Below are positions 1-16,300 of a DNA stretch of 64,000 nucleotides, piece after piece; the stretch's first letter is position 1; each line of letters opens with the position of its first letter. The notes under the pieces are model-generated. The model did not search any database, had not been told where the DNA came from, and saw nothing but the letters and a program-made list of their open reading frames with translations. Source of the stretch: a marine bacterium B5-7 (lineage in GTDB: Bacteria > Pseudomonadota > Gammaproteobacteria > BQJM01); contig BQJM01000001.1 in assembly GCA_021604705.1 (NCBI GenBank), positions 8,276 to 72,275 on the forward strand, written 5' to 3'. Both the position numbers and the translations under genes were made by a program.

Positions 1-63
1 CTGCGCAGCTCACGATTGAGTCTAAAATGATCTGGGGAGGGTGTTTTTTAGCGTTTAAGCATA

Positions 64-151
64 AAATACCCTTATTCTGTGACAAGGTTTGTCACAAACT
101 ACCCTTACTTTGTGACAAGAAATGGCATAAACTACCCTTATTCTATGACAG
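64..151. repeat. Three direct repeats of CTACCCTTAYTYTRTGACA(AG) spaced about 33 bp apart, the first embedded in a palindrome TGTGACAA-ggt-TTGTCACA, upstream of the first ATPase gene. Iteron-like or operator-like.
   Basis: Read directly from the sequence: repeats at about 64-87, 98-120 and 131-151; inverted repeat at 74-95. Confidence 0.6.
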
Positions 152-175
152 ACAGCATCGGGTATTAGGTAAACT

Positions 176-1507
176 ATGATAGAGCGACAGATTCTCACAT
201 CACTGCGCCAGTGGAGAGCAGATAAGCAACGTAAACCGTTAATTTTAAGAGGTGCACGCCAAGTAGGTAAAACGAGTGTCGTAGAGCTGTTTGGACAAGA
301 GTTTGATCAATTTATTTCATTAAATTTAGAAATTACAGAAGAGCGAGTATTGTTTGAACGTGAGTTACCCATTGATAAATTAGTGCAGTCTATATTTTTT
401 CATAAAAACTGTACGCGAGACAATAAGAAAACTTTGTTATTTCTTGATGAGATTCAACACTCCCCGGAAGCCGTCGCGATATTACGTTACTTCTATGAAA
501 AGGTCCCCGATCTTTATGTCATTGCGGCCGGATCTTTATTAGAAACGCTCATTGATAAACAGGTGAGCTTTCCTGTTGGCCGTGTCGAATACATGTATCT
601 ATTTCCTCTAAGCTTTCTAGAGTATTTAAAAGCGGTAGGGGAAGTACAAGCTGCAGAGATGCTGCAAGTGAATGAAGTCCCACCAAATTATGCGCATGAA
701 AAACTATTAGGGTTATTTCATCAGTACACGATGATAGGGGGCATGCCAGAAGTTGTCGCGCATTATGCAGAACACCAAGATTTAACAGCGCTACAAAAAA
801 TATATAATAGTCTTTTAGTTGGTTACCAAGATGATGTGGAGAAATATGCTGAGAGTGCGGCACAAGCGCGTATTATGCGTCATATTGTTCGGCATGTGCC
901 TTTAAATGCTGGAGAACGCATTAAGTTTGAAGGCTTTGGGCAATCAAACTATCGATCTCGGGAAGTGGGAGAAGCATTTCGCATGTTAGAAAAATCGATG
1001 TTGCTGCAACTCACTTATCCCACGATCAGAACGGAACCGCCTTTTGAGTCTAACCAGAAAAAATCACCTAGATTACAATTCTTGGATACAGGTTTAATGA
1101 ATCACAGTGTGGGTTTGCAAAAAGAGTTTATTCAATTAAAGGATTTAAATAATTTATATCGTGGAAAATTAACAGAACATATTGTTGGCCAGCAACTGCT
1201 AAGTACCGGATTACTCAAGAATAATGAACTGATGTTTTGGGTACGCGATAAAGCACAATCAAGCGCTGAAGTTGATTTTGTTTTGCCACGAGGCAATATG
1301 CTGTTACCGATTGAGGTTAAATCAGGGGCAACCGGTGCACTACGATCCTTGCACTCATTTATGGAAAGAACCGCTGGAAAGAAAGCCATACGATTGTATG
1401 CGGGAGAGTCTAGCGTTGAAACCATACAAACAGCCAATGGACACAGTTATGAATTACAGCACCTGCCGTATTATTTAGCTGGCGATTGGTTGCTGGAGAG
1501 CGCATGA
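176..1507 (+). CDS. AAA+ (AAA_14-like) P-loop ATPase with a C-terminal PD-(D/E)xK nuclease-like motif (DUF4143-type architecture).
   Basis: Walker A GARQVGKTS (aa 26-33), Walker B LLFLDEIQ (aa 87-94), C-terminal EVDFVL...LPIEVKSG (D367/E380/K382). The stop overlaps the ruvC start codon (ATGA). Confidence 0.7.
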   Translation: MIERQILTSLRQWRADKQRKPLILRGARQVGKTSVVELFGQEFDQFISLNLEITEERVLFERELPIDKLVQSIFFHKNCTRDNKKTLLFLDEIQHSPEAVAILRYFYEKVPDLYVIAAGSLLETLIDKQVSFPVGRVEYMYLFPLSFLEYLKAVGEVQAAEMLQVNEVPPNYAHEKLLGLFHQYTMIGGMPEVVAHYAEHQDLTALQKIYNSLLVGYQDDVEKYAESAAQARIMRHIVRHVPLNAGERIKFEGFGQSNYRSREVGEAFRMLEKSMLLQLTYPTIRTEPPFESNQKKSPRLQFLDTGLMNHSVGLQKEFIQLKDLNNLYRGKLTEHIVGQQLLSTGLLKNNELMFWVRDKAQSSAEVDFVLPRGNMLLPIEVKSGATGALRSLHSFMERTAGKKAIRLYAGESSVETIQTANGHSYELQHLPYYLAGDWLLESA

Positions 1508-1995
1508 CCACCATACTCGGCATTGACCCCGGTTCGCGGGCGACAGGCTTCGGCATTGTACAACTAGACGGCAAGACACCGCGCTATGTGACCAGTGGCT
1601 GCATCTCCGTGGCAGATAAACCCTTAGCTGAGCGATTAAGCACCATTTATCAACATTTATCCGAACTCATCGGCGAATACCATGTCACAGAAGCGGCCAT
1701 CGAAAGTGTTTTCATGCATGTTAATCCCTCGAGTGCTTTAAAATTAGGACAAGCGCGGGGTGCGGCTATTGTCGCGGTTGGCCAACATCAAGTACCATTA
1801 GCTGAGTACGCGCCGCGAGCGATAAAACAAGCCGTTGTGGGTTATGGCGCAGCAAAAAAAGATCAAATGCAACACATGGTAAAACACTTGTTAAATTTAA
1901 GTGGCACATTACAAGCGGATGCAGCAGATGCCCTGGCTGTTGCCTTGTGTCATGTTAACCACCGGGCCCGACAACAATTAGAGAAAAACTTATGA
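1504..1995 (+). CDS. ruvC: Holliday junction resolvase RuvC.
   Basis: MTTILGIDPGSRATGFG matches the RuvC N-terminus. The ORF-track start at 1486 is an upstream TTG; the ATG at 1504 aligns with RuvC. Confidence 0.9.
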   Translation: MTTILGIDPGSRATGFGIVQLDGKTPRYVTSGCISVADKPLAERLSTIYQHLSELIGEYHVTEAAIESVFMHVNPSSALKLGQARGAAIVAVGQHQVPLAEYAPRAIKQAVVGYGAAKKDQMQHMVKHLLNLSGTLQADAADALAVALCHVNHRARQQLEKNL

Positions 1996-2588
1996 TAGGT
2001 CGACTGACAGGACAACTCATTGAAAAGCAACCGCCGACATTGGTGATCGATGTCAATGGTGTTGGCTATGAATTACAAGCCTCCATGCAAACGTTTTATC
2101 AATTGCCTGAGCTTAATCAAAAAACGACCTTGTTTACCCATTTAATCGTACGTGAAGATGCACAGACACTCTATGGCTTTATGAAAAAGAGTGAGCGTGA
2201 GTTGTTTCGTACCTTGATTCGAGTGACTGGCGTGGGCCCAAAACTTGCGGTGACCATTTTATCGGGTATTGCACCCGATGCATTTGTTGCCTGTGTGCAA
2301 GCACAAGATAGTGCGCAGCTTGTTAAAATTCCAGGCGTTGGAAAAAAGAAAGCAGAACGTTTATTGCTGGAGATGCGGGATTTATTGAAAGACTGGCAGG
2401 TGAGCAGCGAGAATACGCAACAAGCATTACCGGATAGCATCCATCTCATCGTCCAGGAAGCGACGCAAGCATTAATTGCCTTGGGCTATAAACCGCAAGA
2501 TGCTTCACGTGCGATTGCGCGTGTTGATGCCGTAGATAAAAGCTGCGAGGACTTGATTCGCGATGCACTAAAAGGAGAAATGGCGTGA
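1992..2588 (+). CDS. ruvA: Holliday junction DNA helicase subunit RuvA.
   Basis: 198 aa with a RuvA-like N-terminal OB fold and helix-hairpin-helix region; ATGA overlap with ruvC. Confidence 0.9.
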
Positions 2589-3610
2589 TAGAATCTGATC
2601 GCGTGATTACTGCATCCGCACAAACGAATGAAGACGTCGTTGATCGTGCCATTCGACCTAAAAAGTTGGTCGATTATATTGGTCAACCACAAGTCACGGA
2701 ACAAATGGCCATTTTTATTGAGGCAGCCAAAGCACGTGCGGAAGCCTTAGATCATGTTTTCATTTTTGGACCGCCAGGTTTGGGTAAAACCACATTAGCG
2801 AATATTATTGCGAGCGAAATGGGCGCTGGTTTAAAACAGACATCAGGACCTGTGTTAGAAAAAGCAGGAGATTTGGCGGCGATGCTGACAAATCTTGAGC
2901 CGCATGATGTATTGTTCATCGATGAAATACATCGATTAAGCCCGGCCATCGAAGAAATTTTATATCCAGCCATGGAAGACTATAAATTAGATATTGTCAT
3001 TGGCGAAGGTCCAGCCGCGCGATCCATTAAATTGGATCTTCCCCCCTTTACGTTAGTGGCTGCGACAACCCGTGCAGGTTTACTGACTTCACCATTACGC
3101 GATCGTTTCGGTATCGTGCAGCGATTAGAGTTTTACGACGTGCAAGATCTTACGCACATTGTAACGCGCTCAGCAAATATTTTGGGTGTAGAGATGCATG
3201 CCGATGGGGCCAAAGAAATTGCAAAACGTGCACGAGGCACCCCGCGGATTGCGAATCGCTTGCTGCGTCGCGTGCGAGATTTTGCTGAAGTGAAAGGAAA
3301 TGGTGATGTGACAGAATCCATAGCACAACAAGCCTTAGATTTATTAGATGTTGATGTGTACGGTTTAGATATGATGGACCGTAAAATGCTGTTGGCTATC
3401 ATTGAGAAATTTGACGGTGGCCCCGTTGGCATAGAAAGTATTGCGGCGGCTGTTGGCGAAGATCGCGGTACGATCGAAGATGTCATTGAGCCGTATTTAT
3501 TGCAGCAAGGATTTATTATGCGTACGCCGCGTGGCCGTATTGCCACAAAACAGGCGTACTTACATTTTGGCTTACAAGCTGCGGAAGCAGATTTAACGAA
3601 GGAGATTTAA
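2585..3610 (+). CDS. ruvB: Holliday junction ATP-dependent DNA helicase RuvB.
   Basis: Walker [18 protein letters not shown] and arginine sensor motifs; GTGA overlap with ruvA. Confidence 0.92.
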
Positions 3611-3612
3611 GT

Positions 3613-4272
3613 ATGTCGGTTTTACATTATTTTTGGCAAGCAGGGTGGGTTGTTAAATTAGTGATGCTGTTATTACTTGGTGTTTCTGTTTTTTCATGGA
3701 CCGTGATATTTCAACGTAAGCAACATATCAAGCAAATTCGTGAAAAACTTACCGCGTTTAACGAACAGTTTTGGGCTAGCGGTGATTTGACAACATTTTA
3801 CAATACATTGAAAGATAATGCGGATGCGACAGAAGGCTTGGGGCAGATTTTTATGGCGGGCTTTCAGGAGTTTTTACGCGCGAAGCAACAAGCACATATT
3901 ACACCGGAACGCTTAATCGAGAGTGTTCAGCGCGCCATGCATAATGCAGAGGTCACAGTGACTGATAACTTAGAGCAGCATCTATCATTTCTTGCAACGA
4001 TTGGATCGACTGCGCCTTATGTGGGTTTGTTTGGTACCGTGTGGGGGATTATGACTTCATTTCAGGCCCTCGGCGGTGTGCAACAAGCAACGATTGCCAT
4101 GGTGGCGCCTGGTATTTCTGAAGCCTTGGTTGCAACAGCGTTGGGCTTATTTGCGGCCATTCCTGCGGTGGTTGCTTATAATCAACTAATGCAGCAAGTT
4201 GAAAAAATTAATCGTCAGCTAGAAAATTTCCAACGAGATTTTATTAATTTAGTTGGACATCAAGTCCAATAA
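3613..4272 (+). CDS. tolQ: Tol-Pal system protein TolQ.
   Basis: 219 aa, three transmembrane segments, MotA/TolQ/ExbB family features, position upstream of tolR. Confidence 0.9.
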   Translation: MSVLHYFWQAGWVVKLVMLLLLGVSVFSWTVIFQRKQHIKQIREKLTAFNEQFWASGDLTTFYNTLKDNADATEGLGQIFMAGFQEFLRAKQQAHITPERLIESVQRAMHNAEVTVTDNLEQHLSFLATIGSTAPYVGLFGTVWGIMTSFQALGGVQQATIAMVAPGISEALVATALGLFAAIPAVVAYNQLMQQVEKINRQLENFQRDFINLVGHQVQ

Positions 4273-13346: not shown

Positions 13347-16300
13347 TTAACCACCACCATCAGTGAAGACGTTTGCATTTAAGTCGTTAACGTTATTGCT
13401 CAAGTTGTCAGACTCGATGGTTGCGGTGACATTTCCTTCTGAATCTTTAAAGATGATTTGTCCACCTGATAAATCATTGTCTTTACCATCATCTGTTGAG
13501 AAAAAGCCCTCTAAAGTAACGGAATTTCCCTCAGAATAGGTGAGCACCAAATCATTTGCATCTTCCTGTGATAAGCTCGCAGTGATTTGTCCTTTCGTTA
13601 AGCCAATAAACGTCACGTCATCTTGGCCATTATTATAAGCAGCTGAAATCGTATCGTTTCCGAAGTCACCTTCAAAAATAAAATTATCGTCGCCAACTTC
13701 AGCAGTTTCTGAAACAAGACCCGTGAAGGTATCGTTGTTTGCACCATCTCCGTTACCAGTACCTGCAGGACCACCTAGATAAGCGACGCTATCTTTTGTT
13801 GCATCAGCCCAAGGGTTACCACTGCCGAGTTCTTGATTGACTGTTTCAAGGCTGCCATCGTAGTCAAAAGAGCCATCAGCAATTTTACTCCGAACACCAT
13901 TTTCACCAAAGAAGTCTAAAATGGTGATAACGTTATTATCTTGGTCGCCTGCAAATCTTAACTCAAGGTGGTTATTGTCTGGGCTAGAAAACGCTAAGAT
14001 ATCTGCGCTGCTGTTTGCTCCGTGGAACAGTAGGTTGTGTCCTGTGCCTGTCGATAAATCTAAGGTGATGTTACCGATGTCGCCATCAAGAAAGTTGATC
14101 TCAATAGTTTCATTGTCACCATTGGTTTCAAATGTTCGATCGTTGTTATCAGGTGCTGCGCCAATTTCTACGTCGGGAGCTCCCTGTTGCTCACCTTCAC
14201 CTTCACCTTGTGGTTCACCACCGCCGTTACCTTGATTTATATCTAATATATCCTGAGGAAGATTGCTTGGTTGAATGTATTCAAGGTTGTCAGGCACTTC
14301 ACTATCAGTCGCGCCTAACCAAGCGATAGTGTTAGCATCTCCCATGTTATTACTGTCAGGAATGATGGTTAATACTTTTAGCGCTGAATGCGTTGGTGCA
14401 TTGGCATCTTCTGCTGAGTAATAATTTTTGAATGTCACACTAGTATTGGCGTTGCCATAGGTGAAGACTAAGTCATGAGAGTTCTCACCGCTTTTTGTTG
14501 CACTCAGGTCGCCGGGTAGGATGTTGAGGAAATTCACGTTAATCGTGCTACCGACAGTCTGTGGGTTAATCGTGATATCGCCAATGTCGCTGGAGAAGTC
14601 GATGTTAAAAGTGTAGTTGCCATCAGCATCGTCACGTGCCTCCACCGTGTCATCGTGACCAATGTTTACCGTGAAGGGTTCGCTTGGCTCTGGGCTTGGC
14701 TCTGGAGTTGGCTCTGGAGTTGGCTCTGGGCTTGGCTCTGGGCTTGGCTCTGGAGTTGGCTCTGGGCTTGGCTCTGGTTCACCAAGTTCTTGGTTTGCTT
14801 CTATTTGCGTGGCGACTTCTGCCAAGGTTGCGGTTGAGTCATCTTGGAAAGTAAACGTCAAACCTTGATGATCCTGTGCATCATCAATACTAATGCTGCT
14901 ACCATCGCTAAAGAAAATAGTTTGACCGCCATCTTCATTGTTGTTAACCGACTGTAGATCTGAAATATCTCGATCTGCCAAGTCAATGGTATCATTACCA
15001 GAAGACTCTTCTGAAAATTGGAAAGCTTTATTGCCAAAATTACCGCTTAAAATAATGGTATCATCACCTTCTCCGCCAATGATGGTATCATCACCCGCGC
15101 CGGGTATAATGGTGTCGTTACCCTCACCACCAATGATAATGTCAGCGCCAGATGTACCCGTGATAGTATCATTACCATTACCACCGACAAGAAAAGTACC
15201 GCTGTGACTCTCAGTGGGGGTGAAGCCGCTGTAATCAATCGTACTACCACCATCTTCAGCTAGCACAATAATTTGTGTGCTACCCTCAGGACGACCACCT
15301 TCAGTAAAATTATTTTCCTCTGTGATGTTAATAGTGGTATCGTTGAGAGTAAAGAATATCTTATCAAGTGCTGCTGTATTGACAGTGAGTGATGGGTCTC
15401 CCACTACGTCACTGGGGTCTAAACCATTAAAGACTTCGATTGTTTCACTATTATCTGCACCGCGCGTTAATACGAATTGATGGTTATCCCAGTTTTCAAA
15501 CAACACGGTGTCATTTTCTCCAAGACCATTAATGTCGATATTGCCAGACACAACATCTTTTTCAATCGTGAATACGTGATTGTCTTCAGTACTCGTATAA
15601 GTCGTTGCCTCTAAAATCTTTGTTGAGTTTTCTTCATCGATGACGACCTCTTGGAATAAACTTTCTAAGTTTTGTATGCCGGCTCTAAAATAATCACCAG
15701 GGTTATAGTGAGAAGAGCTATCATGATCATCCCAGCGATCTTTGTCATTGTCTTCTCTCTTAAGGTAATGATCTTTCATGTCTTCGAAATAGTGATCTTT
15801 ACTCTCGAATTCTGTTTGGATAAGTTTACCTGCGAAGTCGCCAAGGGTGTTGTAAAGATCATCCAAGAATGGCATTGGCTCAAAGCCTATTTCGCCAGGA
15901 TCCATACCAGGCGGCATCCAAGGGAGATCTCCTTCTATGCCGGGACCCATACCAGGATTCCAAGGTTCATGTCCGCCCATGCCCATACCCATACCAGGAT
16001 TCCAAGGTTCATGTCCGCCCATAGAAGGATCCCAATGAGGTTCTCCAGACTCTCCAAAGAATCCGCCTTTCTGAATCATATCGGTCATGCCGCCTTTGAA
16101 AGGATCAAAGCTCGCATCGAACCAATCGTCATTGCTATGTTGCCAATTAGCATCGCCGGGCATAAAGCCTTTGTGATCACCGGGCATATGATTAGACATC
16201 ATGTCGTACAGAGCTTTCGAACCCATATTCATGTCATGGGTCATACCTTCCGGCATGTTTGTCATCATGTCGTGGAACTCAGGGGGCATATTATCCATGT

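Follow-up and report, generated by a model that had tools for sequence, protein, structure and literature searches.

Members of the PDC-S01 family, described as fusions of an ATPase with a PD-(D/E)xK domain, make up a single-gene defence candidate that takes fourth place in frequency among prokaryotic 'defences', with 29,494 bacterial and 9,986 archaeal detections, and most candidates of this class still await validation (PMC12988326). A PDC-S01 representative assayed in E. coli B against phages T4, T5 and T7 fell outside the four protective candidates (10.1101/2024.09.26.614923), and DUF4143/COG1373 has been placed in the PD-(D/E)XK superfamily with its function unknown (Steczkiewicz et al. 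2012, PMC3424549). We report here on a 64-kb stretch of the genome of the marine bacterium B5-7 (the window), in which the open reading frame (ORF) at 176–1507 on the plus strand, starting 175 nucleotides (nt) from the window edge, encodes a 443 aa ATPase-nuclease that is a new member of the catalogued, uncharacterised PDC-S01/COG1373 family. It shares with PDC-S01 the domains, the single-gene layout and the combination of ATPase and PD-(D/E)xK domain, and is set apart only by its position at the head of a ruvCAB chain. The gene is preceded by three direct repeats, and comparison with homologous loci shows that these repeats belong to the ATPase gene family, and not to the ruv genes or to a replication origin.

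Several described systems combine some of these features. The archaeal Walker-type ATPases PABY2304 (PDB 2qen) and SSO1545 (PDB 2fna) and the signal transduction ATPases with numerous domains (STAND; NB-ARC, CED-4 and Avs) share 10–17% identity with the ATPase-nuclease, and a search of the PDB by sequence gave no match. STAND proteins carry repeat or effector domains, whereas the protein described here has a C-terminal PD-(D/E)xK domain, and we know of no DNA array for either STAND proteins or the archaeal Walker-type ATPases. An AAA+ protein encoded beside its own array of sites (presumed sites in our case) is found with Orc1/Cdc6 and its origin recognition box (ORB) elements, and with DnaA and the DnaA boxes upstream of dnaA; unlike these initiators, the present system has no origin context, includes a nuclease domain and has strict 32–33 base pair (bp) direct repeats, and where initiators have one conserved box, this family appears to have thousands of paralogous specificities. 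The iterons bound by Rep proteins of plasmids and phages are likewise phased tandem direct repeats beside the gene of the (here presumed) binder, but they have a period of about two helical turns versus three for the AAA_14/DUF4143 array, and in our case there is no Rep domain and the arrays are chromosomal and one-sided. There is also a likeness to the controller (C) proteins and C-boxes of restriction-modification systems, as both are nuclease-linked cassettes in which a gene's own promoter and cognate operators travel with it and diversify in specificity; C proteins are small helix-turn-helix dimers separate from the nuclease, whereas here the presumed reader, ATPase and nuclease are one polypeptide and there is no methyltransferase. 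By analogy, the ATPase-nuclease would come closest in its mode of action to AAA+ proteins of the initiator or STAND type that are encoded beside their own site array, with a further resemblance to C-protein/C-box cassettes, and it is a member of none of these groups.

With regard to the protein, a preliminary description of this DNA, made from the sequence alone, had read Walker A and B motifs and a C-terminal D...E-V-K motif in the ORF and pointed to two Pfam domains, all of which were found. AAA_14 (PF13173) matches residues 19–151 (E=2.6e-24, 86.1 bits against a gathering cut-off of 27) and DUF4143 (PF13635) residues 218–384 (E=3.3e-21, 76.1 bits against 28.1), both far above threshold and in the expected N-to-C order, and the PADLOC PDC-S01 model PDLC04788 matches over its full length (E=1.7e-180, residues 1–437 against profile positions 1–436 of 448). 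Walker A (GARQVGKT, residues 26–33, 251–274 on the plus strand) and Walker B (LLFLDE, residues 86–92, 431–451, plus strand) are taken from the translation, while the PD-(D/E)xK motif D367...E380-V-K382 (1274–1321, plus strand) is based on alignment and predicted strands. The 35 aligned sequences show no variation at G26, A27, R28, Q29, G31, K32 and T33 of Walker A, at D91 and E92 of Walker B or at the nuclease residues D367 and K382, and at least 90% of them keep E380. An alignment-based AlphaFold2 model (predicted local distance difference test score 87.4, predicted template modelling score 0.87) comprises a five-stranded P-loop core (residues 1–155), a middle helical domain followed by a helix and beta-hairpin which are winged-helix-like (approximately 246–305), and a C-terminal alpha-beta-beta-beta-alpha-beta domain with D367, E380 and K382. 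In this model the catalytic residues lie on consecutive predicted strands (365–372 and 375–381) with flanking helices at 331–342 and 390–398, i.e. the motif is placed as in the characteristic core of the PD-(D/E)xK superfamily. The C-terminal domain reads as a PD-(D/E)xK nuclease fold with an intact catalytic motif, and nuclease activity is predicted. Structure comparison of the model gave STAND immune sensors as most similar to the ATPase fold, as well as an Orc1/Cdc6-like similarity of the AAA+ part, and a PHROGs search with the protein returned nothing significant.

The array itself (60–158, plus strand) consists of three 33-nt direct-repeat units at 60–92, 93–125 and 126–158 and is a putative operator or assembly site; Tandem Repeats Finder gave it a period of 33 with 2.8 copies and a score of 107. 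The 18-nt core TACCCTTAYTYTRTGACA matches the 64-kb window at 67, 100 and 133 only, where 0.25 matches are expected, and three matches were obtained in 0/100 shuffles. Core copy 1 (TACCCTTATTCTGTGACA, 67–84, plus strand) has 0 mismatches and fits the family consensus AAwTTACCCTnACTTTGTnACAA, and copies 2 (TACCCTTACTTTGTGACA, 100–117, plus strand) and 3 (TACCCTTATTCTATGACA, 133–150, plus strand) match the core pattern. A 19-bp palindrome read from the sequence (TGTGACAA-GGT-TTGTCACA, 78–96) joins unit 1 to unit 2, and an equivalent palindrome was found in a gammaproteobacterial homologue locus (L005/L006). The preliminary description had noted both the three repeats and this palindrome, and had called the repeats 'iteron-like', a term which fits their form as phased tandem repeats but does not extend to a role as origin: there is neither a Rep-type initiator nor an origin setting, and the repeats go with the ATPase gene family.

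This association comes from an array survey for which 80 loci were fetched from species-representative genomes, with counts given over 81 homologue loci; the surveyed taxa are bacterial and include Bacteroidota, Desulfobacterota, Acidobacteriota, Spirochaetota, Gammaproteobacteria and others. Each locus was tested for the most-repeated 18-mer in the 300 nt preceding its start codon, and 162 random segments drawn from the same loci served as control. Direct repeats at 32–33 nt spacing were present upstream of the start codon in 66 of the 81 loci and in 0/162 control segments. The spacings across the arrayed loci were almost uniform (33 nt in 132 cases and 32 nt in 10), with 2–7 units per array and three as the mode, and the locus-specific motif almost never recurs elsewhere in the 8–9 kb loci and is essentially absent downstream and in inverted orientation (80 loci), making the array one-sided. 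The consensus unit AAwTTACCCTnACTTTGTnACAA is followed by an 8–10-nt variable linker and holds an 11-bp palindrome, TTTGTnACAAA, preceded at a distance of roughly one helical turn by an asymmetric ACCC box; lineage variants of the motif are GCCCTGAC, GGGTTGAC, GTTTGGTT and ACCCCCTT. Homologues are solo genes in unrelated contexts, as expected for a stand-alone single-gene system, and there is no conserved partner gene at our locus either. This is also true for the three closest homologues (60–63% identity), of which one is located between an NRPS (non-ribosomal peptide synthetase) gene and a luciferase-like gene, one in an ankyrin/GerE neighbourhood and one between parA and gidA; all three have the upstream motif found here despite these unrelated neighbourhoods. 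Among them, L004 has one motif copy, L005 three 33-nt units (ATACCCTTATTCTGTGACAA), of which the third has an inverted core, and L002 three to four 33-nt units (TTACCCTTATTCTATG). The last unit ends at the ATG in eight Bacteroidota loci, and in L002 and L006 an extended -10 box (TGnTAnnnT) begins where the last unit ends. In these two loci the array therefore touches the promoter or runs into it, in agreement with autoregulation.

Distant homologues (23–35% identity, several phyla) were drawn from viral contigs in GenBank and plasmids in PLSDB. Most of those sampled hold the 32–33-nt period with unrelated motif sequences, and the plasmid-borne ones scanned with Pfam all contain AAA_14 and DUF4143. 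Four gut viral contigs, whose viral nature is unverified, carry three units of 33 nt (L209, ACACTTTTAGGGTATAACTTTTTGTTA; L210, AAAAAGTCGCTTGAAAAAGTT; L212, TGGAAAAGTGGCATA) or four of 33–34 nt (L211, TAATCGCGGATAGGTGTA), the L209 array being found by repeat search and missed by a 15-mer count. Arrays with a 33-nt period are also seen in Collinsella (L219, 3–4 units, GAAAAAGTGTCGAAAT), Prevotella (L221, 3 units, ATTGAAAAGTGTAATTT) and Agathobacter (L222, 4 units, AAAAAATGCGATTTTGT), and arrays with a 32-nt period in Vibrio (L214, 3 units, CTTTTTTATGCGCAT), Criblamydia (L215, 3–4 AT-rich units) and Acinetobacter (L216, 2 palindromic units, ACTTTTATGCGCATAAAAGT), while a Bacteroides plasmid copy (L218) has two motif copies 66 nt apart. 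The Acinetobacter locus is plasmid pTT1-3-1 of A. towneri, where two AAA_14/DUF4143 paralogues (795–2027, minus strand, and 2501–3814, plus strand) diverge from one 470-nt intergenic region; the two units, 32 nt apart, belong to the plus-strand gene, whereas the minus-strand gene showed no clear array. A Segatella copri plasmid has paralogues in four places, with one copy in the 47-kb segment examined. Across 75 arrayed loci, the units of proteins sharing less than 30% identity are as similar as the shuffled null (0.47), and this similarity rises to 0.66 at 60–70% and 0.83 above 80% identity (Spearman 0.42), so as far as can be read from these sequences the period is conserved while the motif turns over with the protein. 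Coding constraint can be excluded as the cause because the period is 32 nt in some subfamilies, and as 32–33 bp is close to three helical turns, successive sites would lie on roughly one face of the helix. We found no upstream phased array described for this family in the searchable literature (open-access papers and preprints), and an earlier description elsewhere is possible.

The window contains a second, distant AAA_14/DUF4143 paralogue (59612–60745, minus strand, 377 aa; PDC-S01 model PDLC04790, 9.9e-53), which lies between queA and a DEAD-box helicase gene. The DNA upstream of it (60746–60876) has a motif unlike that of the first gene, namely a 14-nt inverted repeat (ATTCCAGAATAGTC/GACCATTCTGGAAT, 60764–60793) with an extra CCAGAAT half-site 17 nt away, both overlapping a near-consensus promoter (TTGACC-N16-TATAAT); the ATG is located 6 nt past the -10 box, and hence the mRNA is probably leaderless. 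The presence of differing motifs upstream of two paralogues in one genome speaks against a shared host factor.

Taken from the sequence comparisons, the most economical reader of the array would be the ATPase-nuclease itself, since gene and array stay together in different phyla, array and protein diverge in sequence jointly, the two paralogues in one genome have different upstream motifs, and either the winged-helix-like module or the nuclease fold could contact DNA. We consider it probable that gene and array form an autonomous cassette, in which the encoded protein binds the phased operators in front of its own gene and ruvCAB follow as passengers. In this proposal, the single-gene cassette consists of the ATPase-nuclease gene and its own three-unit 33-bp array, inserted between yebC and ruvC; the ATPase-nuclease would recognise the approximately 20-bp core of each unit, and protomers would align at intervals of three helical turns on or beside the gene's promoter. 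Occupancy of the array may then set the gene's own expression (autoregulation), nucleate an ATP-dependent oligomer, or both; the sign of such regulation and any nuclease target would be presumptive.

Several points weigh against this proposal. We know of no experiment or structure that shows DNA binding by the AAA_14/DUF4143 family, and the winged-helix-like module of STAND proteins often serves oligomerisation and not DNA contact. Simple co-inheritance of neighbouring DNA would also yield joint divergence of motif and protein, and while the conservation of the period despite motif turnover argues for a function of the array, it does not thereby identify the binder. The Bacteroidota core (CCCTAACTTTG) includes TAnnTTTG, which we take to be the -7 box of that phylum, so that conservation there could be partly promoter-driven. 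A clear array was not detected by the 18-mer/period test in 15/81 close loci and in a minority of distant loci, among them the Ruminococcus, Fusobacterium and weak Rhizobium homologues. At our own locus, neither a scan of the window nor manual reading gave a convincing σ70 promoter in or after the array, with none predicted on the plus strand between the divergent ORF and the ATPase ATG and manual candidates being weak. Finally, arrays with the same motif occur in phage contigs which, among the matches listed, have no ATPase gene, something which pure autoregulation does not explain.

These phage arrays were found in IMG/VR viral contigs (L089–L208, L225 onward), in which at least 219 loci match the core pattern, none of the 219 encoding an ATPase homologue; chance matches are expected at such a pattern length, and only the 33-nt partner statistic was used. 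Among the matches listed, a second unit is present at a 32–34-nt step in at least 146 of the 219 loci, with partner offsets in the first viral set falling at ±33 in 44 cases and at any other offset in at most 4. Flank similarity divides the matches listed into 54 clusters, 19 of which have arrays of at least two units, and since the two largest (75 and 45 loci) are related lineages, the number of independent phage occurrences is far below the raw counts. The contigs are genuinely phage, with endolysin, exonuclease and amidase genes beside the arrays, which are intergenic, often 50–110 nt from a divergent gene and often antisense to local genes. Examples of two-unit arrays with core TTTACCCTnACTTTGTnACA and a 33-nt step are located at 4009–4060 in L153, 568–617 in L147 and 7484–7533 in L133. 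Rfam searches of the phage array region gave chance-level matches only, and blastn matches to GenBank phages were confined to an unrelated 45-nt stretch. In one contig (L154, approximately 1190–1270, minus strand) the two-unit array directly follows a sequence resembling the T-arm and acceptor 3' end of a tRNA (GGGGGTTCGAGTCCCCCATCGGTT), a placement as expected at an integration site; ARAGORN predicted no complete tRNA at this array, only the T-arm-like fragment.

The phage arrays may serve as targets or as decoys, or may be bound by phage proteins, and they allow the proposal to be widened. It is possible, if doubtful, that the 32–33-bp array is the cognate ligand of the whole AAA_14/DUF4143 superfamily, each paralogue being programmed for its own approximately 20-bp motif, with its own copy acting as a set-point operator and the phage two-unit arrays as targets or decoys.

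Extended further, the protein would be a defence sensor, i.e. a sequence-programmed DNA sensor-nuclease with phased arrays on invading phage DNA as its ligands, in which the copy upstream of its own gene sets the resting level and phage arrays either titrate the protein off its operator, leading to derepression, or nucleate an active nuclease oligomer. We regard this as rather unlikely, even though the family is listed by PADLOC as a defence candidate and ranked fourth among prokaryotic 'defences' (PMC12988326), the ATPase fold is nearest to STAND immune sensors, the catalytic residues are intact, and genuine phage contigs, without the ATPase gene among the matches listed, carry the stepped units. 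The assayed PDC-S01 representative was not among the candidates protecting E. coli B from T4, T5 or T7 (10.1101/2024.09.26.614923), and a nuclease that cut DNA where it recognises the array would put the promoter of its own gene at risk, with no self-protection system encoded alongside; the phage arrays are equally possible as decoys or as sites for phage proteins, and they represent fewer independent cases than their numbers suggest. The earlier suggestion of a selfish or defence-type gene in the operon came close to the evidence. The family is large, with 8,000 matches at E≤1e-10 in a word-indexed search and 8,573 clusters at 50% identity at E≤1e-3 in an exhaustive search. Plasmid or chromid members (L216, L218, L219 and L224) are often located near HipA, AbiEi/AbiEii toxin-antitoxin/abortive-infection, HNH and RadC genes, neighbourhoods which are consistent with a defence or mobile-DNA setting, while the closest chromosomal homologues, unlike the plasmid-borne ones, are in housekeeping contexts.

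A different explanation is that the array is a tandem promoter, an UP-element or a host-factor site, which travels with the gene without being read by the ATPase. The presumed -7 box in the Bacteroidota core would fit this, as would the eight loci in which the last unit abuts the ATG, as expected of a leaderless-mRNA promoter, the GGGTTGACT variants in which each unit reads TTGACT-N17-TAAAAT (L008), and the location of the phage arrays in intergenic promoter regions. We consider it unlikely, since motif and exact phasing are kept across Gammaproteobacteria, Desulfobacterota, Acidobacteriota, Spirochaetota and Bacteroidota, whose promoter rules differ, and distant subfamilies retain the period with motifs unlike any promoter. 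The motif is also essentially missing from the 8–9 kb around each homologue, the two paralogues in this genome have different motifs, and the 25-nt gap from TTTG to the next -7 box misfits the 19–21-nt spacing of Bacteroidetes promoters.

The genomic setting of the cassette was assessed using a public contig (L001, Logan DRR328265), which encodes an identical ATPase protein and reaches further upstream than the window. Downstream of the ATPase, ruvC (1504–1995), ruvA (1992–2588) and ruvB (2585–3610), all on the plus strand, were identified with Pfam and NCBIfam equivalog models, and all three junctions of the four-gene chain are 4-nt overlaps, as the preliminary description had reported: the ATPase stop TGA (1505–1507) lies inside the ruvC ATGA (1504–1507), ruvC and ruvA overlap by ATGA (1992–1995), and ruvA and ruvB by GTGA (2585–2588). 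That description had also set an ATPase before ruvC against the usual yebC; the ATPase does directly precede ruvC, but yebC is not absent, being located approximately 1.4 kb upstream of the ATPase start, just beyond the window edge. The order on the public contig is yebC, two minus-strand ORFs (257 and 83 aa), an approximately 300-nt gap containing the repeats, the ATPase gene and ruvC-ruvA-ruvB-tolQRAB-pal, with yebC and ruvC separated by approximately 2.7 kb. The nearest RuvC relatives in the database have 64–68% identity, and the insert was missing in all three loci examined: in L086 yebC and ruvC share an ATGA, and ruvA and ruvB come next, again with overlaps, in L087 the yebC TAA is directly followed by the ruvC ATG, and in L088 a 25-nt gap separates the two genes. 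Judged from these three loci, a tightly coupled yebC-ruvC(AB) arrangement is ancestral, and by this sequence comparison the ATPase is located in approximately 2.7 kb of lineage-specific DNA between yebC and ruvC. The overlap with the ATPase gene is supplied by ruvC, since the ATPase TGA is part of the ruvC ATGA, and the same is true for yebC in L086. A strain-specific insertion with its own terminator had been named in that description as an outcome that would speak against its reading; the synteny comparison upholds a lineage-specific insertion and not the terminator, as there is neither a terminator nor intergenic space between ATPase and ruvC. With two opposing genes before the cassette and no terminator between it and ruvC, transcription of ruvCAB probably starts at the ATPase promoter or at promoters within the ATPase coding region, and ruvCAB, directly downstream, is probably co-transcribed as a passenger of the cassette. 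A LexA box (CTGT-N8-ACAG) was not found on manual reading of the array, and SOS control of the chain was rejected.

The two minus-strand ORFs between yebC and the ATPase (849–1622 and 1644–1895 on L001) have no Pfam match and form part of the approximately 2.7-kb insertion. Both end in ...(D)EPPLKKARxSxG, resembling a basic nuclear-localisation signal, and the longer contains QAETQQLQA coiled-coil-like repeats; their products may be secreted effectors of a host-associated bacterium.

An insertion of this kind could also be a mobile element, with the repeats as origin iterons or a transposon end and the ATPase-nuclease as the initiator or transposase that moved the cassette before ruvC. The solo gene is found at many unrelated chromosomal sites, its direct-repeat array lies beside an AAA+ gene with an Orc1/Cdc6-like fold, the insertion boundary falls exactly at the ruvC start, and the GC content of the ATPase gene (40.6%) is below that of ruvC (49%), yebC (49.7%) and the window (45%), which is mildly consistent with foreign origin. 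We consider this very unlikely, as there is no second end, the locus motif being neither downstream nor inverted in the 80 loci, and with the stop codon overlapping ruvC a right end could not be accommodated. The Pfam scan gave no Rep, transposase or integrase domain, plasmid iterons are typically about 22 bp as opposed to the 32–33-bp period here, and most copies are chromosomal, with homologues carried by only 12/50,697 phage and 60/72,556 plasmid records.

That the repeats act at the RNA level, be it as a structured 5' leader, as an array of small or guide-like RNAs or as a coupled upstream ORF, is highly improbable. A 50-aa ORF (27–179, plus strand) does span the array, encoding an 11-residue peptide repeat (HKLPLFCDK-like) with its TGA overlapping the ATPase ATG, and 33 is divisible by 3; this ORF was judged spurious, since the Bacteroidota consensus is open in a different frame and the 32-nt period of several subfamilies excludes coding. 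RNA structure was also rejected, as the array folds with z = -0.9 (35/200 shuffles fold equally well) and Rfam gave chance-level matches only on window positions 1–400, and the last unit abuts the ATG in many loci, placing most of the array upstream of any transcript, with a variable linker of just 8–10 nt.

The idea of the ATPase-nuclease as a functional accessory to RuvABC and its Holliday-junction work, raised in the preliminary description on the grounds of the stop/start overlaps running from ruvC through ruvA and ruvB, and to which the encoded nuclease and ATPase activities would be plausibly suited in DNA repair, is scarcely credible and is largely refuted by synteny: tblastn with RuvC, RuvA and YebC found none of these in 100/100 homologue loci (782 kb), the closest homologues are solo, the nearest relatives have nothing between yebC and ruvC, the ATGA overlap comes from the ruvC start and is the same for yebC in L086, and the second paralogue in the window has no ruv gene beside it but the helicase gene and queA, so that the ruv context is incidental and a one-off.

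Elsewhere in the window, Tandem Repeats Finder reported a 12-nt unit in 8 copies (GCTTGGCTCTGG, 14682–14777), a 27-nt unit in 3.1 copies (15051–15134) and a 42-nt unit in 2 copies (15937–16022), all of in-frame lengths.

For this organism, the arrangement means that any promoter further upstream is now probably separated from ruvCAB by the ATPase gene. For the family, a phased array that changes with the protein gives a first mechanistic handle on a very abundant group, in the form of a predicted DNA ligand for each paralogue, and it allows the prediction of phages which carry matching arrays. If the array is indeed the ligand of the whole superfamily, then one of the most abundant uncharacterised defence candidates would act as a DNA sensor that is sequence-specific, driven by oligomerisation and diversified into thousands of specificities.

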